NCBI GenBank assembly: GCA_963833125.1
Contig: CAWHWX010000001.1
Location: forward strand, 345,702-409,701
Reading direction: 5' to 3'
Source of the DNA: Candidatus Bathyarchaeota archaeon
GTDB taxonomy: Archaea; Thermoproteota; Bathyarchaeia; 40CM-2-53-6
Length of the DNA: 64,000 bases
Positions 9,130-60,761 of the stretch are shown piece after piece. The translations under genes and the position numbers were made by a program. The stretch's first letter is position 1. Every line of letters begins with the position of its first letter. The notes beneath the pieces were generated by a model. The model was not told the origin of the DNA, did no database searches, and saw only the letters and a program-made list of their open reading frames with translations.

Positions 9130-9380
9130 ACCTGAACGCCCTCTATCGTATGGAAGAATGCTTTGTCAAATACTGGTTGCCAAGTCGGATGGTCTTTCTT
9201 CACACACTCGATACATTGCGCAAGGGTTTCTTCCTTAGTCTTCCCCAACTTCAACCCTTCTCGTCTTAAGGCATTGTAAAAGCCACGCAAATCTGCTTGA
9301 CCATCGTAGATGTGCCTACCCGTCCTCGGAATATGTTGAAGTTCGCCGTTAACTATCTGTGTCATCTCTTCCTTTTTCAT
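9126..9380 (-). CDS. Hypothetical protein
   Basis: 84 aa, tightly packed with its neighbours; GGGTG SD. Confidence 0.55.
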   Translation of the reverse strand: MKKEEMTQIVNGELQHIPRTGRHIYDGQADLRGFYNALRREGLKLGKTKEETLAQCIECVKKDHPTWQPVFDKAFFHTIEGVQV

Positions 9381-45761: not shown

Positions 45762-46520
45762 TTAGTTATTTTCGACTTCGTTTCGGTAATGGGTCGCTTG
45801 TTTTTCTCCCTGTACATGTAGTAACCGAAAATTACCAAGAATGCGACTACCCCGATTGGAGCATAAGCACCTTCGGTAGCGGTTCCCATTCCTAGAGCGC
45901 GCCAAGGGAATGACGCAGTTGCCTACAAGAAATTGCACTCTTTGAATTATTATCGCCATTCGTCCCAAAACCGTGCTTCCGAAGACAGCCCCAAGGGTTG
46001 CGAGGATGAAGTACTTGCCGATTTTTGTAACTCCTCCCCAGACCCCTTTCTGTTCCCGGTGCAGGATGAAGTAGGAGAGAGATAGGATGGTGCCTGCAAC
46101 TAAGACTACATTGTCGAAAGTAGTAAGCACATTTCCCGTAAAGAGAGGGACCATGGTTGCGATCACTTGTTTTACAAAAAACGTCGCAAATACGCTCCAG
46201 ATAGTGACCCCTAAACCGTAACCAATCGCTAGACTCAAGGGCACGCGGTATAGATCCGAGTATTTCTTCGTGAACTGCGCATAAAACAGCGAACCCAGGA
46301 TGACTGGTACTATGAACGTTAGGTTTCCGTCAACGAAAATCGGGTTCAAAGCTTGGTTTAGGAACAGGCGTAGGGAAGCGGCAAGAGCGTAACCGGCGGC
46401 GAGGCCGATAAAGGAGTATTCGGCTAGTCGGAAGAATGGGTTTTCCTTGTACAGGAAACTAAGCACCATAAGCGTAATGAATACACCAACCCAAACCCCA
46501 ATCAGATCAATTGGATTCAT
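45762..46520 (-). CDS. Membrane protein of the DUF6754-associated operon
   Basis: SFLYKENPFFRLAE; multiple TM segments. Confidence 0.75.
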   Translation of the reverse strand: MNPIDLIGVWVGVFITLMVLSFLYKENPFFRLAEYSFIGLAAGYALAASLRLFLNQALNPIFVDGNLTFIVPVILGSLFYAQFTKKYSDLYRVPLSLAIGYGLGVTIWSVFATFFVKQVIATMVPLFTGNVLTTFDNVVLVAGTILSLSYFILHREQKGVWGGVTKIGKYFILATLGAVFGSTVLGRMAIIIQRVQFLVGNCVIPLARSRNGNRYRRCLCSNRGSRILGNFRLLHVQGEKQATHYRNEVENN

Positions 46521-46523
46521 CGT

Positions 46524-47366
46524 TCATTTCTCCTTCTTCGAAGTTCGCCGACTAATGAAATAGGCCGCATTGCCAAATACGACCATCGCGACTATCAGAA
46601 CATGAGACGCGGATAATGCAACCATGGAGGAGGTTGCGCCGCTAATCCCCAGGCAGCAATTATACTGCTGGTTAAGCAGCGACTCGTACTCTGCGGCCCC
46701 GCGTATGCTAATCAGGACGCCCACAAGCTGGCCTGAATTGTAGAATGGCATGAAGCCTGGAGCTATTGTGGCTGTAGCTCCGACTGCAACTGCGATATTG
46801 AAACTCCCTTGCCAATATTGAAGATAAGAGTAGAGGGCGCTGCTGTCATCGTCGAATGTGATTACGAATGCAGCGTCTTTTGCGGCTGGAAATTCTTTGA
46901 TGATCGGAAGGCTAGCCGTGGGATTGCCGTGTGTGTCAATGGGCAGGAATTGGGCTATGTTTGATGGCATTCCAATTAGCGTCGCAGTGTTGGGAATGTA
47001 TCCAAGGTTCGCGTAGTCGACTCCATAGGTCTTATTGCCTTTGTTGATTGTGTCGAGGACTGCGTCCGCTAACGGTGGGCCGTTATTATCCAGCGCGACG
47101 AACAGAACCTTGAGCGGCCTCATGAAGATGTGTTGCGTGACGACTATGGCTTGCGGGTGCAATTCAGGGACGACGCTTGTAGCGTAATCGAAGCTCTCTA
47201 CCACGAGACTATTGGGGGGTAAATTCTGGATGAAATCAAATAATGCTCGCGTCGTTGGGGTGATTGGAACCGCGATTACTGCATTCGTAAGAATAGGTAC
47301 AGTAATGACCAGCAAGAGGATTAGGTACACTAGCCTTGGATCCGATCTGAGACTTGAGGAAGCCAT
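46524..47366 (-). CDS. Membrane-anchored protein of the DUF6754-associated operon
   Basis: YGVDYANLGY, GAAEYE; N- and C-terminal TM segments. Confidence 0.75.
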   Translation of the reverse strand: MASSSLRSDPRLVYLILLLVITVPILTNAVIAVPITPTTRALFDFIQNLPPNSLVVESFDYATSVVPELHPQAIVVTQHIFMRPLKVLFVALDNNGPPLADAVLDTINKGNKTYGVDYANLGYIPNTATLIGMPSNIAQFLPIDTHGNPTASLPIIKEFPAAKDAAFVITFDDDSSALYSYLQYWQGSFNIAVAVGATATIAPGFMPFYNSGQLVGVLISIRGAAEYESLLNQQYNCCLGISGATSSMVALSASHVLIVAMVVFGNAAYFISRRTSKKEK

Positions 47367-47370
47367 TAAG

Positions 47371-48063
47371 TTAATCTCCCCAAGGGTACCGGAATAATCT
47401 GCGAACGCTGAACACAAGAATCCCGAGAGCAGCGCCGATGAGGATGCCTCTTTGACCAGCTGTATTGGGAAACGCCAATATCCAGTCGCGAATCACACCA
47501 AATCCTGGCCACACCAAATCTGCTATTGGCGCCTGTCCTAACACGACCAGTAAGCCTGCGGCAAGGAGAATCGTTGATTCTAAGGATCGCGCTTTGAAAG
47601 CCCGGTAAGCTGCTGAGGCAATGAAAAAGGCGAGAAGAGAAAAGATGCTTGAGTTTATGTTAACAAGAATTTTGTAGTATAGAAATTCCCAGATCGGGGT
47701 TGAGAATGCGATGACACTTGCAGGTATTACGGCCGCCTGGGGGTCCAGCGCGTAAGGTGAAGCGATCATGCTGAATATCGCCATAGCATAAAGGGACACA
47801 AGCAGAATTATGCTGTACCTCCAAGTCGCCCGCTTTCTTTTGATGTTGTTCACATGAACGCGAGTGAGGTTGATGACTCCAATTGCGAATGCGGCCGTGA
47901 GCATTGCAGTCAAGTAGGCTAATAACTGGTCAGAAACAGCTTGTAAATCAACTATTCCTGGCACTGCAACATAGTAGACGATTGCATAGAAGAAACCCAA
48001 GCTGAAGATAATTACCTGAAGGCCAAGGTCCCCGCGAGTCATCTTCTTCTTGTCTGAGCTCAT
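47371..48063 (-). CDS. Membrane protein of the DUF6754-associated operon
   Basis: FSLLAFFIASAAYRAFKARS, PNTAGQRGILIG. Confidence 0.75.
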   Translation of the reverse strand: MSSDKKKMTRGDLGLQVIIFSLGFFYAIVYYVAVPGIVDLQAVSDQLLAYLTAMLTAAFAIGVINLTRVHVNNIKRKRATWRYSIILLVSLYAMAIFSMIASPYALDPQAAVIPASVIAFSTPIWEFLYYKILVNINSSIFSLLAFFIASAAYRAFKARSLESTILLAAGLLVVLGQAPIADLVWPGFGVIRDWILAFPNTAGQRGILIGAALGILVFSVRRLFRYPWGD

Positions 48064-48070
48064 CGGCGAC

Positions 48071-48841
48071 TCATAACCCCATCAAGGCGATCAGGATCGA
48101 GTTACCGAAAGTTATGAGGAGAGCGCCAGCCAAAATGAGGAGGATCGCGAGGATCTTTCCTGCGTCGGGTCCGATGAGCTGGGAAATGGCCTCAGGGTCC
48201 GAGGAGAGGTATCCTTGTGCTGTGTATAGTTCCTCTCCGATTAGAGTTTGATCGCAAGTCGTCATGAAAAATGCCAATTGATCTGTATTGGTTGTGCCTC
48301 CGAACTGGTAGATGGCTTCGCCTCTGCCAGTCTCGGCAATTTGCAATGCTTCGGCCTGAAAGTCGCCGACGAAAAAGTTAACGGCGGGTTTTTCGCGACG
48401 CAGAATCCCCATGACACCAGCTGCATATGCGAACTGTCGGGTAGATACATACCGCACCATGTCGGTGCTGTACTCTTTCTCTCTCCCGGCCTTAGCATAT
48501 GCACTTTTCACCATATCCTCAGTAATCTGTTGCACTTGCGGGTCGGAGTTTGCAACGAGAAGTCGAGCGTTATGTTCAACACAATGTTTCGCTACGTATC
48601 CGAGGAGGGCTAGTGCGGCAAGTGTGTCTGGTGTGGTTATCCCGCCTGTTCCGGGTGTGAAGAAGACGCTTCGATTGAGTTTTGCTGCTTCCTTAATCCA
48701 TTCATCAATCCTCTCCAGGCCAGGGATGCCCCGCGTCTTCAGTTTCCTTTTCGACGCGAACTTTGCAACCGCGTAAATAGCAACCAACACAATAACGAGT
48801 AGTATGGCTTGTGCTATACGGCCGGGTATTAATTCCAACAT
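48071..48841 (-). CDS. DUF6754-like protein
   Basis: IPGLERIDE, QFAYAAGV, AEALQIAETG, LIGEELY. Confidence 0.75.
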   Translation of the reverse strand: MLELIPGRIAQAILLVIVLVAIYAVAKFASKRKLKTRGIPGLERIDEWIKEAAKLNRSVFFTPGTGGITTPDTLAALALLGYVAKHCVEHNARLLVANSDPQVQQITEDMVKSAYAKAGREKEYSTDMVRYVSTRQFAYAAGVMGILRREKPAVNFFVGDFQAEALQIAETGRGEAIYQFGGTTNTDQLAFFMTTCDQTLIGEELYTAQGYLSSDPEAISQLIGPDAGKILAILLILAGALLITFGNSILIALMGL

Positions 48842-49014
48842 AAGACGAACACTACGAGCGTTCGCGGCTGTATGCGGCGATTTGCTTAAGACTCTATCTG
48901 TACCCGAATCCAAGGGAAACAAACGCAATTAGCGTCTGCAACGAGAAAACGAACAGATAAACAGAAAAAGACTGAAAATAGGGTTGACCAGGAAACGGAA
49001 CCCGACATGCGGGT

Positions 49015-49095
49015 TTAAGCTACCATTTCCTCTTGTCTAACGTTCTTGTCGTGCTCAGTACCTAATTTCATCTTAACCTTACGTTTCTTCGCCAT
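49015..49095 (-). CDS. 26-aa small protein, copy 1 (MAKKRKVKMKLGTEHDKNVRQEEMVA)
   Basis: GGAGGTGA SD, TTATATA box upstream, hairpin plus T-tract downstream; paralog at 60137-60217. Confidence 0.8.
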   Translation of the reverse strand: MAKKRKVKMKLGTEHDKNVRQEEMVA

Positions 49096-49227
49096 CTCAA
49101 TTCACCTCCCTGTTTTCTGGTCTTACATAACCAGGCTGCTAAGAGCTGGGATGAATCTTGTATATAACTGGGCTTGGAGAAAAAGGTAAAAAGCCCGAAT
49201 GTTCTACATTTCCACCGGAGATACTTA

Positions 49228-49464
49228 GTGTCGAGAACATTCGAACCGGGCAAAAAGAGGCGGCTTAGCCGAAGTATCAAGATCAGCTCCGATATGTACG
49301 AGCGACTTGTGAGCCTACAGGGGTTTTTGCAGTTGAAAGAGAGACGTAAGCGAAGTATGGATGAGTTAATCGAATTCATCTTATCTTTCGTGCCAGACCT
49401 AGAGATCGACGTAGACGAAAACTACTACATTGTTCAGAGCAAGGCGAAAAAACAGTCAGCATAG
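49228..49464 (+). CDS. Ribbon-helix-helix-like protein, divergent from the small-peptide gene
   Basis: RSIKISSDMYERL...SMDELIEFIL; GGAG before the GTG start. Confidence 0.55.
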   Translation: MSRTFEPGKKRRLSRSIKISSDMYERLVSLQGFLQLKERRKRSMDELIEFILSFVPDLEIDVDENYYIVQSKAKKQSA

Positions 49465-49655
49465 TCGCAAACGTTCCAAATCCACGCCTCTCCAATAATT
49501 GTGTCCCATTTTCGGCGATATATGTAGACAAGGTTCGGCAATGGCTTATTCATGGTAGGAATTATGCCGCTAAGAAGTTTATACGGCATCTAACACAGCG
49601 GTCTGGCACCCAAGGAACAGCGTAAACCGACTGTCTTTGCTGGAGGTCATAGAGA

Positions 49656-50870
49656 ATGCAACTCAAAGTGTACAATTCACTTACCCGCAGGAATGAACTG
49701 TTCACGATATCCACGAACGGGCAGGTTAGGATGTTCGTATGTGGACCCACAGTATACGATTTCGTTCATTTGGGACACGCTAGAACATATCTTGCCTTTG
49801 ATACGATCACTCGTTATCTGAAGTTCTTGGGCTATAAAATCCAATACCTCATGAATATCACAGATGTAGCTGAGCGAGTCGTTCAACGAGCCGAGCAGTT
49901 AAAACGAGACCCTCTTGACCTTGCCCGAGAGTACGAAGTCGACTTCTTGGAAGACATGCAGGCTCTTGGAATAACACAGGTTGACCGGTTCGAAAGAGCT
50001 TCCGAAGCCATTCCGAAAATGATCGCCCAGGTAACTGGTCTAATCGACAGGGGAATAGCATACGAAACAGAAACCGGAGTCTATTTCGAGGTCGACAAGT
50101 TCCCCAAGTTCGGTCAACTTTCCGGCTTAACCCACGAAGAACTCGGCTTGCGAAGGCTTGAGCTATGCTCTTCGAAACGACAACCCGAGGATTTCTCATT
50201 GTGGAGAAAGTATGAGAAAGGTCTCGCTTGGGATTCACCTTGGGGACGAGGCAGGCCGGGATGGCACATTGAGGACACAGCCATCTCGATGGCGCAGTTC
50301 GGAGACACGTATGACATCCATGGTGGTGCCCGAGAACTCATTTTTCCACACCATGAAGCCGAGATTGCGCAGGCAGAAGCCCTGACTGGGAAGATCCCGT
50401 TCGTGCGTTACTGGCTTCACACGGGTTTGTTGAATGTAGAGGGTCGTAAGATGAGCAAATCATTGGGTAACGTAATCCGTATTCGCGACGCCCTCCGAGA
50501 ATACACCGCACCGGAAATCAGATTCTATTTTGAATCGGTGCATTACAGGCAACCGATGGTATTTTCAAAGAGTGGAATGATCAAGGCCAAACGTCGGTTG
50601 GATCATCTCCTCAAGAATTTCAACGCATTCTTAGACGCAACGCCAGCGGCAGACCTAAAGACGAAAAACCCACCTGCCAAAATGGCGAGATACGAATCAA
50701 CATTCACACGCCATATGAACAACGACTTCGACACACCTGGAGCACTAAATGTCCTAGAAGAATTCGCTGATGAGCTCGCAAGAGTGGGCCCGACGCTCAA
50801 TCAACAAACGAAAACAGGATTCGAAGCAACATTTCGAAGCCTGGCAGGTTTGCTTGGCTTACTTTCCTAA
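49656..50870 (+). CDS. cysS: Cysteine--tRNA ligase
   Basis: CGPTVYD, HLGH, GRPGWHIE, FPHHE, KMSKS. Confidence 0.95.
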   Translation: MQLKVYNSLTRRNELFTISTNGQVRMFVCGPTVYDFVHLGHARTYLAFDTITRYLKFLGYKIQYLMNITDVAERVVQRAEQLKRDPLDLAREYEVDFLEDMQALGITQVDRFERASEAIPKMIAQVTGLIDRGIAYETETGVYFEVDKFPKFGQLSGLTHEELGLRRLELCSSKRQPEDFSLWRKYEKGLAWDSPWGRGRPGWHIEDTAISMAQFGDTYDIHGGARELIFPHHEAEIAQAEALTGKIPFVRYWLHTGLLNVEGRKMSKSLGNVIRIRDALREYTAPEIRFYFESVHYRQPMVFSKSGMIKAKRRLDHLLKNFNAFLDATPAADLKTKNPPAKMARYESTFTRHMNNDFDTPGALNVLEEFADELARVGPTLNQQTKTGFEATFRSLAGLLGLLS

Positions 50871-50877
50871 TTCCAGC

Positions 50878-51255
50878 CTAGTAGAGCCAAGCGCGAAGCG
50901 GATGCCTTGCTTCCTTAAGGACGAAGCGAAATGCCTCTTTCCCGGTGTCGAAATAATACCATTCATCCTTTCCTCCCGCTATATGCTTCCGCAATTTCGG
51001 GTTCCATAATTTATCGCAGATATTCACGCAATAACTGCCCCGATAGATGCCCACGAAGATGAATCCACCGTTTACGTGGTTCTCCAGATTTCCGTCTGCA
51101 CGCACTCCTTCGTCCTCGTCTAGGGCTTCGATGAAGTCTAACAGGTCTTTTTCATTTCTGATAGTGCGCTCAGAGTACGTTACTTGTGACGTCCGCTTTC
51201 TACTGTGTTGCATCAACGCCCCCCCGGAAGTTTCTAATGGTAATAGATCATTCAA
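50878..51255 (-). CDS. Hypothetical protein
   Basis: 125-aa ORF; likely start MQHSRK. Confidence 0.55.
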   Translation of the reverse strand: MNDLLPLETSGGALMQHSRKRTSQVTYSERTIRNEKDLLDFIEALDEDEGVRADGNLENHVNGGFIFVGIYRGSYCVNICDKLWNPKLRKHIAGGKDEWYYFDTGKEAFRFVLKEARHPLRAWLY

Positions 51256-51317
51256 ATCTACTTATTGAGTGGTCTATAAGTGGACTCGTGAGCCAAGAAA
51301 TCAAGGAAGCGCGTTGA

Positions 51318-52247
51318 TTGCCGTCAGTTTTAGTCCAATACGATGGCGACAAGGTGGAAACGAGAACATTCCGAACTCATCTTCGCGCTTTGGCATGGGA
51401 TAGCCACGGCCCCGATCCAATAATCGTGGGCAACGGAGGGCAGGTGATAAGAATCCGAGACCGCGAAATTCAACGACTCAATACAGATACCAAGTACAAC
51501 CTACGTGCTGTGTCAGTTAACCCGGTCGATAACTCGGCCTTGATCGTGGGAAATGCTGGCACGGTCCTACTGCTTCATGATGATGGGAATTTCATAAAGC
51601 TAAGCACGTCGACCGGTGAAAATCTTCGTGCTGCAGCTTGGAATCCGAAGGGAAATCTAGCATTGATTGCTGGAAACAATGGCGCTTTAATGAAATACTA
51701 CGAGAGCCACATAGAAGCGGTTGACAATGGCAGAGCGAATCTACGTGATATTTCTTGGCGACACGCTTCCGATCAAGCGCTAGTTAGCTCCAACTGCTTC
51801 GCTGAAGAATTCATCCCTTCCCCCAACCTCTTCGTGTACGAAACAAAATCGGATACTGTAAGGTCAGTCAATGAAGGGCGCTCCGACCTAATTGGCGTCG
51901 ACTGGAGGCCAGACGATGCATATGCGTTAGTGGTTGGGTATGATGTTGTCTGGCATAACGGATTAATCGCGAAATTCGACGAAAACACATTGGTGCCGAT
52001 CAAATTCGAAAATAAGCGCGTCTACCCAGTTGCAGTAAGGTGGGATCCGACGGGTAAGGTGGCAGCCATCGCCACAGCAACAACCCAAGTAGGGACCGGA
52101 AATGGCCAACTCAGCCTATGGGACGGAGAAAGCTTCAAGCAACTTTACAACAGCAACGAATTCTTCTTCAGCCGCGTCTCCTGGGCTGCGCATGGCTTCA
52201 AACTTGCCGCAATTGCCTCGACCTATACTAGGACTTTCAACTGCTGA
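51318..52247 (+). CDS. Beta-propeller repeat protein
   Basis: Repeated NLRAxxWxP...ALIVGNxG blades. Confidence 0.75.
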   Translation: MPSVLVQYDGDKVETRTFRTHLRALAWDSHGPDPIIVGNGGQVIRIRDREIQRLNTDTKYNLRAVSVNPVDNSALIVGNAGTVLLLHDDGNFIKLSTSTGENLRAAAWNPKGNLALIAGNNGALMKYYESHIEAVDNGRANLRDISWRHASDQALVSSNCFAEEFIPSPNLFVYETKSDTVRSVNEGRSDLIGVDWRPDDAYALVVGYDVVWHNGLIAKFDENTLVPIKFENKRVYPVAVRWDPTGKVAAIATATTQVGTGNGQLSLWDGESFKQLYNSNEFFFSRVSWAAHGFKLAAIASTYTRTFNC

Positions 52248-52372
52248 GGGAACATGATTCCTTAGCCGGATTGAGAATGCGCAAACATCTGCGTTATTGG
52301 CAGGGGCGTGAGTTGGCAAGTCTTTTAACTGATGAAAAGCGATGTTTGCAAAGACCAAAAGCGTGAAGCTCG

Positions 52373-54022
52373 ATGTCTAAGCCAGCCGTTTTTGTCAGGG
52401 AAGCAACCGGACTAGTTCGATCCATGTCCGCGTGGGATATGCTGTTTCTTAACATAGTCTCTTTCGGAGGAGCTTGGTCGATAATCTACGCGCTAGAATA
52501 CGCCCCTCTCTATGGTGGCAATGTACTCGCAAGTCTGGTGCTTACAGCGCCTGGAATCCTCGCTTTGTTGGGCGTCTATTACATTTTCCAAGTGAGTATG
52601 CCGAGATCTGGGGGAGATTATGTTTTCATTAGCCGGATTATCCACCCGGCAGTTGGTCTTGCAGCAAACTTTGCCGGCTACACTTTCTTCCTCTGGTTCT
52701 GGATTGGTGATGCTGCGGACGTTTTTTCGAGCCAAGGACTTGCCCAGACTCTAAGCGTGTATGGGTCCTTGACTGGGCAGCAGTGGGCCACTAATGCCGC
52801 GGCAACATTCACACCTTTGACTACTTTCCTGGTAGGTACCGTTGCAATTATCATCTTCACACTAATCGTGATGTTCAGTACCAAGTTATACTTCCGAATT
52901 CAGAACATCTGCATGATAATCGCCATCGCGGCCATTGTAATCATCGTTGGTTTATTGGCTAGTACTAATCCAACCTCCTTTGCTACCGTATTCAACAACT
53001 ACGCCACTTCACAAGGGGTGTCACTGAGTCAGGGTGCTTACGGGAACTTTACCGCAACTGGCAATTCGTACTGGGGGGGTTCGCTTCCAACTGATCTGAT
53101 GTCGACCTTCACCCTAGTGCCTCTCTGGTTCACTGTTCTGTTTTGGGTTTATGTTTCAAATTACCTAGCTGGCGAACTCAAGAACGCTAGAGCTAGCGCG
53201 AAGACTGCGTTGTTTGGAAGTTTCGCAATCATATTCATCACTACCGCGGCTGTCCTAGGATTAGCCTACAACAATTTGGGACCACAATTTCTAACTGGTG
53301 CAGGATACTACGCCTTCGGTTACGTTACGAATCCCCTTCCAGTGATACCCAACCTCACTCTCTTCGCTTCATTACTAGCAAATAACCCACTTCTCGTCTG
53401 GTTCATCGGAATCGGGGTGATCGCTGGATTCATCCTCGTTACGCCCCAATGTATGCTTTTGATGTCTCGAATCGTGTTTTCCTACTCCTTCGATCGACTC
53501 GCCCCTAGCCTTTTCACAAACATTAGCGAGCGATTCCATACCCCCACCAATACGATCCTGGTCGCTGCCGTTGGAGGCGAAATTTTCCTCGCATTCTTGA
53601 GTGGCGTCGTAGGGCCCTCAACTTCAAACTACGCATTCCTACTCTACTCATACGCTGGACTAGCAGCTGTGGGCGTTACGTTTGTATTCATCTCAATCTC
53701 CGCGATAATGTTTCCCTACAGACGCAAGGAACTCTACGACACAGCCTGTCCGATCCGGAAAAAGATCGCCAAAATCCCAATAATCACTTGGCTGGGGATA
53801 ATAGCGCTGGCCTACTCACTCCTTACGATTGGATACTACTCATACAACTATGTTTTCTACTTCGGAGCGGGCACGTTAGCTGCGAATCTCTACTTCCCAT
53901 TCGTAGGGGGAGTGATAGCCCTATTCGTAATTTGCCTAGCATGGTTCTACGTGGTGAAGATCATTCGAAACCGTGAAGGCATACCCTTCGAGAAGGCGTT
54001 TCAACAGATACCGCCGGAATAA
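52373..54022 (+). CDS. APC-family amino acid/polyamine permease
   Basis: FVREATGLVR, MPRSGGDYVFISR, FEKAFQQIPPE. Confidence 0.9.
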   Translation: MSKPAVFVREATGLVRSMSAWDMLFLNIVSFGGAWSIIYALEYAPLYGGNVLASLVLTAPGILALLGVYYIFQVSMPRSGGDYVFISRIIHPAVGLAANFAGYTFFLWFWIGDAADVFSSQGLAQTLSVYGSLTGQQWATNAAATFTPLTTFLVGTVAIIIFTLIVMFSTKLYFRIQNICMIIAIAAIVIIVGLLASTNPTSFATVFNNYATSQGVSLSQGAYGNFTATGNSYWGGSLPTDLMSTFTLVPLWFTVLFWVYVSNYLAGELKNARASAKTALFGSFAIIFITTAAVLGLAYNNLGPQFLTGAGYYAFGYVTNPLPVIPNLTLFASLLANNPLLVWFIGIGVIAGFILVTPQCMLLMSRIVFSYSFDRLAPSLFTNISERFHTPTNTILVAAVGGEIFLAFLSGVVGPSTSNYAFLLYSYAGLAAVGVTFVFISISAIMFPYRRKELYDTACPIRKKIAKIPIITWLGIIALAYSLLTIGYYSYNYVFYFGAGTLAANLYFPFVGGVIALFVICLAWFYVVKIIRNREGIPFEKAFQQIPPE

Positions 54023-54074
54023 TCTGACCTAGCGACCACCGCCAAACCAATCGTTTGAGGAAGCCGTGGGTCGT

Positions 54075-55235
54075 ATGTCAAACTCCGTATTCGTACTTGG
54101 GGGAGGGCGAATGGGAGAGGTCGCCGCTCGCGACCTCTGTAGATCAACGTTGTCGACGAAGTAATCATTGGTGACATTGATATTACCAGAGCAGAGCATG
54201 CTAAGAGCACTATTGCGTCTAACAAAATCAAAGCCGTGAAGGTTGACGCGACTGATCAAGCTAAGATAGTTGAGAAAATCAGCGCATCCCGAGTCTTGAT
54301 CAACGCCGTGTGGTACGAACACAATTTGGACGTGATGAAGGCGGCGATTCAAGCGAAAGTTCACTATAATGACCTTGGGGGCCTCTTTCACATGACACGC
54401 AAACAGATGGAACTCAATAACGCTGCCGAGAATGCAGGAATCACGGCAATTCTGGGAGGAGGAGAAAGCCCGGGAATCACAAACGTAATGGTTGCTCTCT
54501 GTTCGAAGAAACTCGATAGTGTTCAGAAAATCAAAATCCGCAGTTGGAGGGACGGAGATAGGAAATAGACCTGCAGAGGACCGATTGGTTTTCCCATTTG
54601 CGGTTTCAACCGTATTCGACGAGTACTCTAAGACCCCTGTTATGTACTTGGACTCAAAATTCCAGGAAGTTGTCCCGCTCTCCGGAGATGAGATAGTAGA
54701 ATTCAAGGAGCCAGTTGGCAAGAACACCTGTCATTACTCCATCCATTCCGAAATTGCGACACTGCCGCTGAATTTCAAGCAGGCTACAGACGTCGACTTC
54801 AAGCTCGGCGTTTCTCCGAGAATCTTCAAAGCGATTAGGCCCATAATTGAGGCTGGGTTAGATGACTCCAACTCCATCGAAGTGAAAGGGATGAGTGTTT
54901 CACCTCGCGATTTCGCGATAGGCTACCTCCAGTCCCGTTCCAGCAATGAGGAACCAGAAAGGTGCGTTGCCCTGAAGACGGAAGTTGAAGGGGTAAAGGA
55001 TGGGAGAAGAACGATTGTAATCTCTGACGTTGTGGGGAGACCGGATCCAATATTCGGGGTAAAGAACGGCACGGCTCTTCTAACCGGTGTCGGCGCGTCT
55101 ATTGTCGCTCAGATGATCATGACTGGAGCCATAACAAAGAAAGGAGTGGTTGCTCCGGAAACCTGCGTTCCGCCTGAGGAAATGTTTTCCGAACTCGAAA
55201 AACGAAACATCCAAACCTCGATTACAGTCACGTGA
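54075..55235 (+). CDS. Saccharopine dehydrogenase family oxidoreductase (two frameshifts)
   Basis: MSNSVFVLGGGRMG, YNDLGG, GESPGITN, HSEIATLP, GVVAPE. Confidence 0.85.
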
Positions 55236-55570
55236 GCCTCTATCCGTGACGAAAAGGCCGGATCAATAAGTAAAGAAGTAGCTCATCTGTCCAAAAGGAA
55301 GGGAGCGAGTTTTACGGTAGACGTTACTCTGCGGTACCTGCTGCATAACCTCGCGGCAGCCTAAAGTTATATTGCGCATTTCCAAACTCTGCCGAAGAAG
55401 ACAATCGTACTCGGGCGAGATTCATGCCCTCAAATGACAAAGATATTTTCTATTTGAAACTTCAATGGATTTCTGCGAAAAACGACACTGAACGAAAAAA
55501 TCTGGCCGAAAAGATACGACAACGTTTGTCCGAGAAAAGTACGAGTGCAAGCCAGTAGGGCCACACTCGA

Positions 55571-55957
55571 TTGTCAACTTCTGCCCGTCCGTTTGCAATT
55601 AAACTACTTGTCGCATTAGACCTGGTGCTAGGCATACTCTCGCTTCTGCCCTTGTTGATTCCAGAAATTCGGCCGTCGCCAAGATTTGGCATCGCCAGTG
55701 ATCTGGGGTCAGTAATCTTCGCTTTGATCTGTTTCATATTGGCGTATGGACTTTGGAGTAGGAGAAGGTGGGCTTGGGTCGTTTCCCTCATATTCTCAAT
55801 TCTCGGCATAGCGCTTCTCATATTCACACTGTATGCAAGGCCGCGCACGGGCGAATTTGTTGCCTTGATCATAGACCTGGTAATTCTGTACTTGCTAATG
55901 CAACCCGGAGTGCAGCGCTATTCCGGAAAACTTTCACTGCCCCAAGCCCCGGCTTAG
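55571..55957 (+). CDS. Small membrane protein
   Basis: 4 TM segments; LAYGLWSRRRWAW. Confidence 0.65.
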   Translation: MSTSARPFAIKLLVALDLVLGILSLLPLLIPEIRPSPRFGIASDLGSVIFALICFILAYGLWSRRRWAWVVSLIFSILGIALLIFTLYARPRTGEFVALIIDLVILYLLMQPGVQRYSGKLSLPQAPA

Positions 55958-55998
55958 GAAAACATGATGCTCGGTTATCTGCATGAGGAAGTGTCTTC

Positions 55999-56970
55999 AT
56001 GAGTGGACTGAAAGTCGATCTACAAGCGATTGAAGACGCCAGCCGGAGAATCGCAAACGTAGCCTACAAGACGCCTTTGTACTATTCTCCGGGCCTCAGC
56101 AATCTCACAGGCGCCAAGGTGTACTTGAAGCTTGAGTCCTATCAACCAATCCGCGTCTTCAAAGTCCGAGGTGCGGCAAATAAGATCCTGAAACTTTCAC
56201 AAGAGGAACTAAAACGGGGACTACTCGCTGCTTCATCCGGGAATCATGGACTGGCGGTTTCGTATCTTGCAAAATTGACGGGAACTAAAGCAACGATAGT
56301 AGTGCCAATTACCGTCGTCGAGGAGAAAGTGAGAGCGATCGAAGAGTACGGGGGAACAGTTATCAAACATGGCCTATTCCATGACGAGCGTTACGCTAAG
56401 GCACTTGAGATTCAGAAGATGTCTGGTGCCGTTCTTATCCCACCCTTCGACGATCCGGACATAATTGCGGGACAGGGAACCATTGGACTGGAAATCCATC
56501 AGGACTTACCAACCGTAAGCGCGGTCATTGTCCCGATTGGTGGAGGTGGCCTCATTTCTGGAATAGCTACAGCATTGAAGAGCTTGAAGCCGGAAATGAA
56601 GATATTCGGAGTCGAACCTGAGAAGGCCTCGTCGATGTATCTTTCAGTTAAGAGCGGGAAGATTACTCGACTAACAGACACAACCTCCATCGCGGACGGC
56701 CTGGCAACCCGCGAACCAGGAGTGCTTACGTTCGAATGCGTAAAGCGCTATGTGGATGAAATTCTCCTGGTGAGTGAAGAGGAGATCGAGAAAGCCGTTT
56801 TCACAGTAATGCGAGAATGTCATTTGATCGTTGAGCCATCAGCCGCTGCAGCCGTCGCGGCTCTCGTTGCGAAAACTGATCTCAGAAAAGATGCTGAGAT
56901 CGTGGTGGTTGTAAGCGGGGGAAATATCTCGCTTAAAATATTATCCAGGATTCTGTCGAAATATAGCTAA
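55999..56970 (+). CDS. ilvA: Threonine/serine dehydratase (PLP-dependent)
   Basis: FKVRGA, ASSGNHG, AGQGTIGLE, PIGGGGLISG, SGGN. Confidence 0.85.
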   Translation: MSGLKVDLQAIEDASRRIANVAYKTPLYYSPGLSNLTGAKVYLKLESYQPIRVFKVRGAANKILKLSQEELKRGLLAASSGNHGLAVSYLAKLTGTKATIVVPITVVEEKVRAIEEYGGTVIKHGLFHDERYAKALEIQKMSGAVLIPPFDDPDIIAGQGTIGLEIHQDLPTVSAVIVPIGGGGLISGIATALKSLKPEMKIFGVEPEKASSMYLSVKSGKITRLTDTTSIADGLATREPGVLTFECVKRYVDEILLVSEEEIEKAVFTVMRECHLIVEPSAAAAVAALVAKTDLRKDAEIVVVVSGGNISLKILSRILSKYS

Positions 56971-57248
56971 CCTTTGAACCCTATCTGAAACATATTTTCT
57001 AGGTCGTAGTTGCTGTACGACTTGAATGCGATCAATGTCATCGTTCGCGTTATGCCCTTCACCCTTGCAAACCGTTCTGTAACAACCCCGGTCAGATCTT
57101 CAGCTTCTTTCACTCGGACTATTGCTACGAGGTCGAAGTCGCCTGCGATCGAGTAAACCTCTGTTACGTCGGTGATTTTGAGTAGTTCCTCGGGGATGGC
57201 AGCAATACGGTCCCTTTCCGCATTCATCATGACAAAGGCAGTGATCAT
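56967..57248 (-). CDS. Lrp/AsnC ligand-binding domain protein
   Basis: EVYSIAGDFDLVAIVR...GITRTMT. Confidence 0.82.
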   Translation of the reverse strand: MITAFVMMNAERDRIAAIPEELLKITDVTEVYSIAGDFDLVAIVRVKEAEDLTGVVTERFARVKGITRTMTLIAFKSYSNYDLENMFQIGFKG

Positions 57249-57321
57249 TGACGACGCCTAACCAATCTAGGTCCGGCGAGCCAGGTTCTTAAATTCTAGC
57301 TATTCCAGCTTCACGAACAGT

Positions 57322-58180
57322 TCAAATCTTCTTTTCGAAAACAAGGCAATGTTTTCCCCATGGGCTCCGCCTGAAACCGCATTTCCCTGCAATTGAAAGT
57401 TGGTAGGGTTCATAAGGTATGTATGAGCTCAGGATCTTCGCGCCAAGTGCCCCTGCTATATTCTTCGCGCTATTCATTGACTTTGGCACGGGTCCGGTCA
57501 GAATTGTTAGACTACTCTGAGGTTCCTTGAATCTTATCTCCGGCCTTGTTACGAGAAAAGCGGAATCCCCCGCAACGTAGAGCTCACCTTGCCTTTCCAA
57601 TTGCCTAAGCAGACGCTCTGAGCTTCTCATGAAATGCGGTCCACGCGCTATGTAGCCATTCATCTTGCTTGAGTAGCTTGATCTCAGGAATAATCGCAGT
57701 TGAGTGTTGGAAGCAAAAGTTGGGAATACGGACTGTGCCTTCTTCTTTACTCTTAGACGGCAGGAGACGTGGGCAGCCTCACATACTAGCTTGAATCCAC
57801 CCTTTTCGCAGGCCTTGATTGACGCCTTATTCTTCGATAACGCCCATAGCCTTAGAGGGCCTAGCCCTTCCCCTTCGCGTAGTCAACGATTTGCTTTTGC
57901 AGGAAGATGGCTACTCCACGTCGACGCCAAGCGGGATCTGTGCGCGCCATGCTTAGCCATCCGCTGCGGTCGACGCACTTTTCGAAGTTAGTCATACCTA
58001 CGAGCTCGGATCCTTCCCAAGCCAAGAAGAGTTAGCCATGGGCGATGACGTTGGAAAGTATCTTGAATACGTAGTCATATGGGCCGACCGCTCGGCGACA
58101 AAGCCTAGTTATCGAGCGTAGGTCCGATTGCTTCGCTATTGTGCGTTTGAATTGAGGTTGCCTCGTCTGAAACGCACCGG
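57322..58180 (-). pseudogene. GNAT acetyltransferase, disrupted by a stop codon and frameshifts
   Basis: LFLAWEGSELVG...WLSMARTDPAWRRRGVA read manually; C-terminal part in ORF 57322-57663. Confidence 0.6.
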
Positions 58181-58186
58181 ATTGGG

Positions 58187-59410
58187 TTACGCCGTGGCGA
58201 CGTGAAGGAATACTTTCCGTCGTTGATCATGTTCTCAATTTTACAGTATTCATTGGGCTGATGAGCCATGTCGTCGAGCGTTGACCAAACGGCAGTTTGG
58301 ATTCCCTTGCGCCTAAAGTACGCTCCCACAGTGCCGCCGCCGATTCCGATTGCTTTCGCGTCTAACCCACGCAACTGTTTCAAAGCGGCCTTCAATCTGA
58401 CCACAATTGGGCTGTCGATTGGGGTCGGGCTCGTATTTTGTTCCTGTTGAATGGGTTTAACTTCGATCGCTGCACCAGTTTCCTTTTCTACCCTCAACCG
58501 GAGTAGAGTCAATTTCTTTCAGTACGTCAACGAGAGGGTAGCGTGGAAGAATTCGACAGTCGAAATATTGTACGTCAATTCCAGGAACCGTGTTGACATT
58601 GTCAACATTCGCATCGCATTTCGTCGGTTCGAAGGTTGAGGGTTGTGGATCAAATAAGGGGTCTTTAGCGGGATATTTGGAGTGCAGCATCTCGTCGAGT
58701 TGAATTGCAAACTTCATGCCTGCGCGGCGGGCGTTCAATCCTCTCTCAGGAGTGCTACCATGGACCTGCATGCCTTTTGTCGTGATTCGCAGCCAGAGTA
58801 TGCTTTTTTCTGCGGTTTCGATTTCTGAGCCATCCGGCTTCCCGCTGTCGGGTACCAGAGCCATGGATGTTGGCTTGAATACGTTTTTCTCAAGAAGCGG
58901 AATAACTCCGTACTTGCTTCCGGATTCTTCGTCGGAGAAGAGAACAAGGCCAAGAGTCATTTTCGGTTTAATTCCCAGCGTTTTGATCGCTTTCATGGTG
59001 AATAGAGCTGAGCAAACCGATTGCCCATTGTCCTCTGAGCCCCTCGCGAAGATCTTGCCATCCTTTACGACCGGGACGTAGGGATCGGTTGCCCAGAGTT
59101 CACGTGAACCCTCAGGAACAGTGTCTAAGTGCGCGGCCAACCACAGGGTTCGACCCGCATCCTCACCCTCTATGATAGTCGTGAGGTTTACTCGGACGCC
59201 TTCTGCCACGCGATTATCAGGAATATCGTACCTCATTACCTTCAATCCATTCTCTTCAAGCCATTTTTTCACGAAGAGAGCACGGTCGTATTCCCCTTTT
59301 CCTCCGAAATCTGGGTTTACAGCCTTGATCTTTAGCATGTCGACCATGAATTTCGTCATGTTATCGCGGGACTGGTCAATCCATTTTATAGCATCAATTG
59401 AGTTCGCCAT
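58187..59410 (-). CDS. M20 metallohydrolase (DapE/ArgE-like; frameshifts)
   Basis: AHLDTVP, RGSEDNG, DEESGS, HGSTP, GGGT, AHQPNEY. Confidence 0.88.
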
Positions 59411-59477
59411 CGAGTTTCAGCCCAATTGAATCGAGGTTGGCTTTCGACCAAAAGATAAAGCTTGACTACTGCAGGCG

Positions 59478-60062
59478 GTGATTGTGACTGGCCAGTTTAC
59501 CTTGGATTCTCTCAGGAATCGACTATTACCTCAGAGTTCAGTTCGGGAATCAGGAGAAGGGCCTCCAGTCGCCGCCGTAGCGATTATCATCAACCCAGAT
59601 GATCGTGGCGGCTCAGTGCTTTTCATTAAGAGGACTGAGCGGAGGGGAGATCCGTGGTCAGGACAAATTGCGTTCCCGGGAGGACGCAAATCGCCTAGAG
59701 ACAAGGATTTTGCTGAAACAGCCGTCCGAGAGACATGGGAGGAGGTTGGAATACAGCTCAGTGGCCACGAATTACTTGGCCACTTACCAATCGTGACCAC
59801 GAGGTCTCGACGGCTGCGAGTGTTGCCTTTCGTCTTTCAACTCAAATCAACCGTTAGTATTCGTGTAAACGAAGAGGTCGCTGAGGTGTTCTGGATACCG
59901 TTGAGCGATCTGAAGAGGCTTGAGGTTGAGAGTCGAGAAGTTAGAGTTGACGAAGGTACCTTGTCAGCTGATTCCTATGTCTATGACGGTCACGTGATAT
60001 GGGGATTGACCTTCAGAATAATCAACTTGCTCTTAGACAGAGAAACCCAAACCGACTTGTGA
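59478..60062 (+). CDS. Nudix hydrolase (CoA pyrophosphatase-like)
   Basis: WSGQIAFPGG...TAVRETWEEVG, IWGLT. Confidence 0.88.
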   Translation: MIVTGQFTLDSLRNRLLPQSSVRESGEGPPVAAVAIIINPDDRGGSVLFIKRTERRGDPWSGQIAFPGGRKSPRDKDFAETAVRETWEEVGIQLSGHELLGHLPIVTTRSRRLRVLPFVFQLKSTVSIRVNEEVAEVFWIPLSDLKRLEVESREVRVDEGTLSADSYVYDGHVIWGLTFRIINLLLDRETQTDL

Positions 60063-60136
60063 AAGCGTTCTAGTCAAGCGAATTGATAACTAAAATAAGA
60101 AAAGAAGAGGCGGAATATGCCGCCCCCGTGGCAGCC

Positions 60137-60217
60137 TTAAGCTACCATTTCCTCTTGTCGAATGTTCTTATCGTGCTCAGTACCCAACTTCATCTTAACT
60201 TTGCGTTTCTTAGCCAA
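60137..60217 (-). CDS. 26-aa small protein, copy 2 (MAKKRKVKMKLGTEHDKNIRQEEMVA)
   Basis: GGAGGTG SD, TTG start, TTAAATA box, GGCGGCATATTCCGCC hairpin plus T-tract. Confidence 0.8.
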   Translation of the reverse strand: MAKKRKVKMKLGTEHDKNIRQEEMVA

Positions 60218-60761
60218 CCCCAAACACCTCCACAAATCTTCTAGAAGCAGGCTATCTGTGTTCAACGTATTTAACGGGGCCTGGAGAAAAAGTAAGAAAG
60301 GGAGAATATTCCTCATTTCTACCGGGTAGAGAGTAAAGTCTTCACGCGCAATCTCTCTACAGGTCAGTAGGATCTAGAACGGCAATGACACGAATTAGGG
60401 TGAGTCGCCCTCTCTGAAAAATCCAATCCACCTATTCTACCAAGTGGAACCATCAGCCGGTCGAACCACCTATTCCACCTAGGCTTATCACATTTCGCAC
60501 AGGAAATACTTGGTTTACCGGTGACCGCGGGTGTTAAGTGAGCAATACACGACGGAGGTTACACAATTCAAATGTGGTTTCTGTGGGTTTGTTTACAGCG
60601 ACTTAGAAGAAGCAGAACAGTGTGAATTACAGTGCGTCACGCGTGCTCCGCGTCAGTAGAGTTGAAAGAACGCCGTTTGCAGGCAACTAGCAACTAGTCG
60701 AGAACACGGCAAAATTCACGTCGTCCGTGCGACGTTGTCTTATGACCTTAGTATGCTGCGT

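Follow-up and report, generated by a model that had tools for sequence, protein, structure and literature searches.

A Microprotein Family with Its Own Promoter Class

The window, a 64,000-nucleotide stretch of Candidatus Bathyarchaeota archaeon contig CAWHWX010000001.1 (positions 345,702 to 409,701), carries two copies of a 26-codon gene on its minus strand, hereafter copy A (49015..49095) and copy B (60137..60217). These genes belong to an undescribed microprotein family with a promoter class to itself, restricted to a single clade within one Bathyarchaeia genus. Judged from the sequence comparisons below, this is a real protein-coding microgene family under selection. A first-pass annotation of the window had described the two genes as a dispersed pair. 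It undercounted the family, which has eight full-length copies in the genome by tblastn, and it missed the shared promoter, the regulon that this promoter defines, and the concerted evolution of the copies.

Both 81-nucleotide open reading frames (ORFs) exist as first described, each consisting of 26 codons and a TAA stop. Copy A starts with ATG and encodes MAKKRKVKMKLGTEHDKNVRQEEMVA; copy B starts with TTG and encodes the same peptide except for isoleucine at position 19. The two coding sequences (CDSs) are identical at 72 of 81 nucleotides, and the nine differences comprise seven synonymous changes, one nonsynonymous change (V/I), and the start codon. Copy A, located by tblastn, has syntenic orthologues in nine other genomes, and copy B has them in two (G019 and G016).

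The expression signals reported for the two genes were likewise located. A GGAGGTG Shine-Dalgarno sequence lies 7 nt before the ATG of copy A (49103..49109, minus strand) and 7 nt before the TTG of copy B (60225..60231, minus strand), and a TATA-like box occurs 50–70 nt before the start of each (TTATATA at 49161-49167 for A and TTAAATA at 60268-60274 for B, both minus strand). Globally aligned, the flanks of A and B (5' leaders, further upstream DNA, and 100 nt downstream) are 44–49% identical. The untranslated regions have thus diverged as had been claimed, except that the upstream region keeps a conserved 66-nt promoter block. The 3' ends differ between the copies. Copy B is followed by a terminator-like hairpin of eight pairs, six of them G-C, with a T-rich tail (60096..60127, minus strand), and this element is scored by a terminator scan (60127-60106). 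At the 3' end of copy A (48941..49015, minus strand), a 6-bp GC-rich hairpin (49015-48999) directly follows the stop, and the T-rich tract (about 48980-48941) begins ~25 nt beyond it; the simple terminator scan gives no score here. The hairpin of copy A is kept in positional orthologues. Neither Rfam families nor tRNAs were found in the window.

Size and Distribution of the Family

The window's own assembly (G000; 3.07 Mb in 39 contigs, 87.8% complete) contains eight full-length intact copies, which match the peptide by tblastn with E-values of 1e-9 to 1e-12. The next-best match has an E-value of 1.8, which excludes chance as the source of the eight. Three further small ORFs in this assembly (C32:9488, C16:245834, and C9:about 84250), identified with the promoter profile, share the promoter and have a basic N-terminus related to that of the peptide, along with different C-terminal halves, two of which end in E-x-V-A.

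With a family profile, 13 of the 22 other genomes in the genus were found to carry 1–12 copies each. None of 36 genomes from four sister genera has the family, and in a class-wide sample of 401 it had no match in the 378 genomes that belong to other genera. Across 185,579 species genomes, scanning with a pattern returned 16 loci, all from Candidatus Bathyarchaeia archaeon, and no relative occurs among 142 pattern matches in viral contigs. On metagenome contigs, 78 loci were found with the pattern MAKKRKVK, by which ATG-start copies alone are detectable. Seventy-seven of these 78 ORFs are complete, 76 of the 77 are 24–26 amino acids in length, and one with an ambiguous base reads on. A Shine-Dalgarno sequence precedes 76 of the 78, 73 of the 77 end in E-x-V-A, and the collection amounts to 28 distinct peptides.

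That the peptide belongs to no recognized family, as the first-pass annotation stated, agrees with our searches. Two members have no Pfam family at E-values up to 10, and there is likewise none in NCBIfam; the family profile has no match among 177,635 PDB sequences at E-values up to 10. Queries this short have little power in these searches. PADLOC and PHROGs hold no family for the peptide, four exact peptides that were looked up are absent from a collection of 15 billion proteins, and no paper in the literature searched contains an 8-residue piece of the N-terminal half.

Selection on the Encoded Peptide

Selection was assessed on 27 CDSs from four species (8 + 6 + 6 + 7), leaving out the shorter or divergent L035 and L037. 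Variable sites at codon positions 1, 2, and 3 number 9, 10, and 20. The dN/dS-type comparison that the first-pass annotation had named as a check gave a Nei-Gojobori ratio of nonsynonymous to synonymous proportions (pN/pS) of 0.175 across 351 pairs, against 0.118 when G000 alone is taken, at a pS of about 0.41; whole-CDS values range from 0.12 to 0.19. Together with the intactness of all eight copies in the assembly and the narrow length distribution of the metagenomic ORFs, these values strongly support the earlier proposal of a translated, selectively maintained microprotein.

The two halves of the peptide behave differently. The N-terminal half, MAKKRKVKM, is unchanged across all species groups despite synonymous changes. 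The C-terminal halves vary by species group (e.g., MAKKRKVKMKLAESGHVKSETGQTEYVA, MAKKRKVKMKIGHEASEVKDTSDYVA, MAKKRKVKMKIAGEDVRAESAATEYQA, MAKKRKVKMKLEGREARDTTEYVA, and MAKKRKVKMRVGERESSRAEQAYEYEA), and they stay hydrophilic and acidic, nearly always end in E-x-V-A, and leave the length at 24–29 codons throughout. Frame, length, start, Shine-Dalgarno sequence, and stop are preserved in more than 100 copies, while the nucleotides of the C-terminal half have been replaced outright between species.

The peptide is a charge di-block, with a net charge of +6 over residues 1–11 and −2 over residues 12–26, in keeping with the basic N-terminus and acidic C-terminus first noted. Its grand average of hydropathy (GRAVY) is −1.23 and its helical hydrophobic moment is low (0.34, Kyte-Doolittle scale), which argues against membrane insertion. 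On these two values we rejected a membrane-active type I toxin or leaderless bacteriocin. Cysteine is absent from 16 + 12 aligned members and from the 28 metagenomic variants, and no serine or threonine position is conserved. The peptide also departs from very small ribosomal proteins (eL41-like and lineage-specific ones), which are single-copy and uniformly basic, in having eight copies and a C-terminal half of net charge −2.

The species-specific C-terminal halves are distributed in a manner that indicates concerted evolution. Three syntenic locus pairs are shared by genomes G014 and G018, and at all three the C-terminal half is that of the species, not that of the locus. In G016, the substitutions K10S and T13K occur in five of seven copies, through the same codons and with two base changes each, and the copies at the positions of A and B are among these five. 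Because positional orthologues carry their own species' C-terminal half, the copies evolve in concert, most simply through short gene-conversion tracts limited to the CDS, and nearly the same peptide is made from every copy in a genome. A separate irregularity was seen in G000, where the copy on contig C18 is without a promoter block and its stop is directly followed by a second C-terminal fragment, an orphan that ends in a stop of its own (L026:1579-1602, equivalent to C18:186928-186951). This fragment looks like a recombination or gene-conversion scar.

A Promoter Shared by Microprotein Genes

A gap-free alignment of forty promoters, drawn from 12 genomes, spans 66 columns with a mean column identity of 78%. 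The block consists of an upstream element (GTRGAAATG, then a GAAC.TTC-like sequence), a CTCCAAGCC box, and a TTAAATA or TTATATA box. A sequence-only model built from these 40 aligned promoters (R1) matches the promoter blocks of copy A (49160..49221, minus strand; G000:C1:394861-394922, E-value 1.2e-15) and copy B (60266..60330, minus strand; G000:C1:405967-406031, E-value 1.6e-18). R1 has matches in 14 of 23 genomes of the genus; those listed are the 13 that bear the peptide, together with G000 and, as a remnant, G022. Peptide-bearing genomes have 8–13 matches apiece, with 13 in G016, 11 in G000, 10 in both G019 and G015, and 8 in G013, G014, G018, and G021 alike.

All 11 matches in G000 precede ORFs of at most 75 amino acids, so the promoter defines a gene set composed of microproteins alone. 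Where the other genes preceded by R1 matches were read, they encode further peptides ending in E-x-V-A, a C2H2 zinc-finger protein, and a His-rich CxxC protein. The C2H2 microprotein is conserved, is 60–75 amino acids in length, and contains an A-F-[ST]-E-E-E-L motif (G000 C5:117298-117560; L127, L129, L142, L143, L154, and L158). It is without a Shine-Dalgarno sequence and may be leaderless. The His-rich CxxC microprotein, of 46–63 amino acids, occurs in G018 (L155), G014 (L159), and G016 (L162) and is frameshifted in G013 (L151); it was not found in G000, at that assembly's 87.8% completeness.

The full GGAGGTG sequence that precedes the peptide genes is not a general feature of the genome, as there are 331 such sites in the 3.07 Mb of G000 against 378 expected, and just 40 of these precede ORFs of at least 60 amino acids. 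Each family copy is monocistronic. Across 48 distinct copies, the 55 nt following the stop fold better than shuffled sequences (mean z −1.73, with 28 copies below −1.5), and a T-run lies within 80 nt in 40 of the 48. On contig C23 of G015 (L027/L054/L065), a 29-amino acid ORF occurs ~400 nt from a family copy. It has the same basic N-terminus and a C-terminal half of the form R-W...S-W, does not have the family promoter, and resembles the variant at C16:245834 of G000.

Genomic Context

Copy A is the ancestral copy. The gene order of cysteinyl-tRNA synthetase, a 78-amino acid ORF, the peptide, and a DUF6754 gene is kept in nine other genomes (G019, G016, G015, G014, G018, G021, G020, G011, and G001). 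Copy B has a GyrI-like gene on one side and a NUDIX gene on the other, a position common only to G019 and G016.

Four tightly packed genes for membrane proteins lie downstream of copy A, on its own strand (45762..48928, minus strand). The first, separated from copy A by 86 nt, encodes a DUF6754 protein (48071-48928, minus strand, E-value 4e-69), and the other three are membrane ORFs of no family (47371-48063, 46524-47417, and 45762-46520, minus strand). DUF6754 is found in 12 of the 22 genomes of the genus and in none of the 36 sister-genus genomes. It is present in 10 of the 13 peptide-bearing genomes, those without it being G007 (67% complete), G004 (75%), and G013 (100%). In ESM Atlas clusters the domain is mostly bacterial, with 1750 clusters at E-values up to 1e-3. 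It frequently forms the C-terminal part of a larger protein, with PQQ_2, fn3, glycosidase-like, or no partner domains, which provides no functional lead, and our search of the literature found DUF6754 in no paper. Within the genus the operon is restricted to the peptide-bearing part. Because the family is otherwise mostly bacterial, horizontal acquisition of the operon is suggested.

Genome G013 has lost the operon. A deletion fused the ORF of copy A to a fragment of DUF6754 and brought the gene for the small subunit of DNA polymerase D adjacent. One of the eight promoter matches in G013 still stands before an intact peptide gene, whereas in the sister species G014 all are intact. The decay in G013 takes several forms, with the ORF deleted at L141 and L148, the 5' end missing at L149, the zinc-finger gene absent at L150, and the His-rich CxxC gene frameshifted at L151. 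This is a single natural event, and kin are not independent cases, but the coincidence of operon loss with decay of most promoter-linked genes suggests that the microproteins behind this promoter go with the operon.

The 78-amino acid ORF (49228..49464, plus strand, GTG start) is divergent from copy A and upstream of cysteinyl-tRNA synthetase, and it starts directly against the promoter block. The gene is single-copy, 84–99% identical, and present in 18 of the 22 genomes of the genus, five of which lack the peptide. One of these peptide-less genomes, G022, retains the promoter element beside the ORF; R1 finds nothing in the other four at E-values up to 0.01. The ORF is modeled as two helices and a β-hairpin (pLDDT 75.5). 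A suspected likeness to ribbon-helix-helix regulators was supported by no test, there being no Pfam match and the best hits having an E-value of 0.15 among PDB sequences, an E-value of 0.59 with Foldseek, and a Z-score of 4.0 with VIA-align. In the more distant genus members G009 (L101) and G005 (L100), the place of copy A before DUF6754 is taken by a 55-amino acid C2H2-type ORF with a Shine-Dalgarno sequence and a hairpin. It resembles the peptide too weakly for a relationship to be asserted.

An all-against-all tblastx comparison of the 12-kb contexts of the 11 G000 loci found no recurrent neighboring gene. Secreted small proteins of 141–268 amino acids, having a C-terminal tail like a sorting signal, with PEYP[LF]GL followed by a hydrophobic stretch and RR(K/R), give 48 pattern matches, about 38 of which are convincing in G000 and several of which are in tandem. 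The tail suggests an archaeosortase-type substrate family. Some lie near peptide genes (C12:103773-105469; C18:187164-187970; C16:245263-245688; and C32:about 9230-9320). They were rejected as general neighbors, since they occur at most 2.1 kb downstream at 5 of the 11 G000 loci yet at only 4 of the 64 loci examined, two of the four belonging to G000. Elsewhere in the window, an M20 peptidase frame (58105-59410, minus strand) is split into overlapping ORFs of 317 and 135 amino acids, which may reflect a frameshift or a pseudogene.

Possible Functions of the Peptide

The explanation that we favor, and hold tentatively, is that the peptide serves as an abundant intracellular adaptor that binds polyanions and is made under a specific program. 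The amplification of the gene, its strong translation signals, and its homogenized product point to a product needed in stoichiometric amounts, as opposed to one that is catalytic or acts purely in cis, and the opposite charges of the two halves are what suggest an adaptor. In such a mechanism, 8–12 monocistronic copies with a private promoter class and a perfect Shine-Dalgarno sequence would produce the peptide in bulk. The polybasic N-terminal half would clamp a polyanion, whether DNA, RNA, the ribosome, or the anionic face of a membrane. For the acidic tail and its fixed E-x-V-A tip we envisage either folding back, to tune or self-inhibit binding, or docking of a co-evolving, species-specific partner. 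At 5 of the 11 G000 loci the next gene is convergent, which counts for action in trans.

Several observations weigh against the adaptor. An acidic half is unusual in a simple nucleic acid binder. The pS found within genomes (0.41) is the same as that found between them (0.42), which makes gene conversion patchy rather than sweeping. The ancestral copy A stands directly upstream of a membrane-protein operon, the peptide and DUF6754 are present together in 10 genomes, and the loss of the operon in G013 coincides with decay of most promoter-linked genes; this operon context is at least as favorable to a role tied to the membrane or to export. Last, the episodic, species-specific switching of the C-terminal half resembles co-evolution of a signal with its receptor or of a precursor with its enzyme.

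Alternatively, the peptides might be a partner, substrate, or cargo of the four-gene DUF6754 membrane module, which we regard as almost as probable as the adaptor. The peptide might be a cytoplasmic regulator held to the membrane by its polybasic end, or it might be exported as a species-specific peptide, with the N-terminal half as leader and the C-terminal half as the active portion. The position of copy A 86 nt upstream on the same strand, an arrangement kept in nine other genomes, speaks for this relationship, as do the restriction of the domain to this genus among the genomes compared and its presence in most peptide-bearing genomes. The complete genome G013, which lost the operon and has an intact peptide at one of eight promoters where G014 has all of them intact, provides further support, and a constant N-terminal half combined with a switching C-terminal half is the pattern of leader and core or of signal and receptor. 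Yet that one copy in G013 is intact although the operon is gone, close relatives do not count as independent cases of co-occurrence, and there was only one event of decay. The peptide has no signal peptide and no cleavage motif, the operon encodes no ATPase or peptidase, and DUF6754 itself is without known function; moreover, the other promoter-linked genes look like those of intracellular zinc-binding microproteins. An extension of the idea, in which the peptides would form an identity or signaling system, is unlikely. Here the N-terminal half would be a handle for the DUF6754 complex and the C-terminal half a message for a co-evolving receptor, with the promoter class shared with zinc-binding microproteins. 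To our knowledge, no peptide-based signaling has been established in archaea.

Besides a nucleic acid- or ribosome-binding factor and a stress peptide, the first-pass annotation had raised a precursor of a peptide made by the ribosome and then modified post-translationally (RiPP) or of a signal. The RiPP part of this suggestion is weakened, there being no cysteine in the variants seen and no modifying enzyme among the neighbors examined. Dispersed RiPP precursors on the prochlorosin model, with one leader and an enzyme encoded elsewhere, would explain the many scattered copies and their invariant N-terminal and variable C-terminal segments. The supposed leader, however, is just 11 residues, no serine or threonine is conserved, the supposed cores are identical and not diversified within a genome, and the 23 ORFs scanned at 43–64 kb of the window include no RiPP enzyme family, a genome-wide search for a maturase not having been made. 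We consider such precursors quite improbable. A role in cis, in which translation of a Lys/Arg-rich ORF would control read-through of the hairpin as in a leader peptide or attenuator, draws on the layout of ORF, hairpin, and T-tract, on the clustering of Lys and Arg codons in the N-terminal half, and on the same-strand downstream genes at 6 of the 11 G000 loci (gaps of 86–1437 nt). It is largely refuted by the 5 of 11 loci that face a convergent gene and so have nothing to regulate, and the downstream genes that do exist are mutually unrelated. In addition, the whole peptide is under selection, including its E-x-V-A tip, and a cis model leaves nothing for concerted evolution of the product to do; such a model is accordingly given very little credence. 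Equally hard to credit is a small regulatory RNA in which the ORF is incidental. The short monocistronic units, stable 3' hairpin, and purine-rich sequence would suit an RNA, but the excess of third-position substitutions and the low pN/pS would not, and neither would the preservation of frame, start, Shine-Dalgarno sequence, and stop through outright replacement of C-terminal nucleotides; there is also no Rfam match. A function in anti-phage defense or a viral origin was rejected in light of the PADLOC and PHROGs results and the lack of relatives in viral contigs.

Comparison with Known Systems

The gene architecture is most easily set beside that of the α/β-type SASPs of Firmicutes (small acid-soluble spore proteins), which are described as a family of 2–12 copies, easily duplicated and lost, with one σG promoter type (PMC3533761). 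According to the same account, SASPs are produced in bulk, bind DNA, on which they act stoichiometrically, and make up as much as 20% of spore protein (PMC3533761). The family described here is likewise multigene (1–12 copies) with one dedicated promoter type, strong Shine-Dalgarno sequences, and homogenized products, a likeness in gene architecture only. SASPs are bacterial proteins of 7–12 kDa tied to sporulation and σG, whereas the present peptide is archaeal, has 26 amino acids, and has no Pfam match, and DNA binding by it is hypothetical.

Prochlorosins (ProcA/ProcM) offer a parallel in their many scattered precursor genes with a conserved N-terminal and a variable C-terminal part (PMC10783134). 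The present family has scattered copies, a constant N-terminal half, and a C-terminal half that varies between species. It differs in having an 11-residue N-terminal part in place of a long Nif11-type leader, in lacking cysteine, and in having C-terminal halves that are identical within each genome.

Very short translated ORFs are known from the archaeon Methanosarcina mazei, an example being the 23-amino acid sP26, which acts on glutamine synthetase (10.1101/2020.05.06.080432; PMC11456600); they work in trans on a partner protein. The genes described here are similarly very short and unannotated archaeal ORFs. Compared by description only, the M. mazei microproteins are single-copy, condition-regulated, and act on known enzymes, whereas the present ones are multicopy, evolve in concert, and have their own promoter class.

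Significance

The absence of all four exact peptides from a collection of 15 billion proteins indicates that genes this short escape gene callers. Nevertheless, the peptide is among the most carefully maintained sequences of these genomes, encoded in up to a dozen copies that have their own promoter class and are kept uniform, most simply by gene conversion, and the set of genes sharing that promoter is a computationally defined, microprotein-only regulon in an uncultured archaeal lineage. G013 represents a natural 'knock-out' species, and the peptide is short enough for synthesis. If the peptide is a bulk binder of nucleic acid or the ribosome, it would represent a novel type of chromatin or dormancy factor in archaea. 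Should it instead be a partner of DUF6754, it would offer a first way into a domain that is widespread (1750 clusters) and of unknown function.

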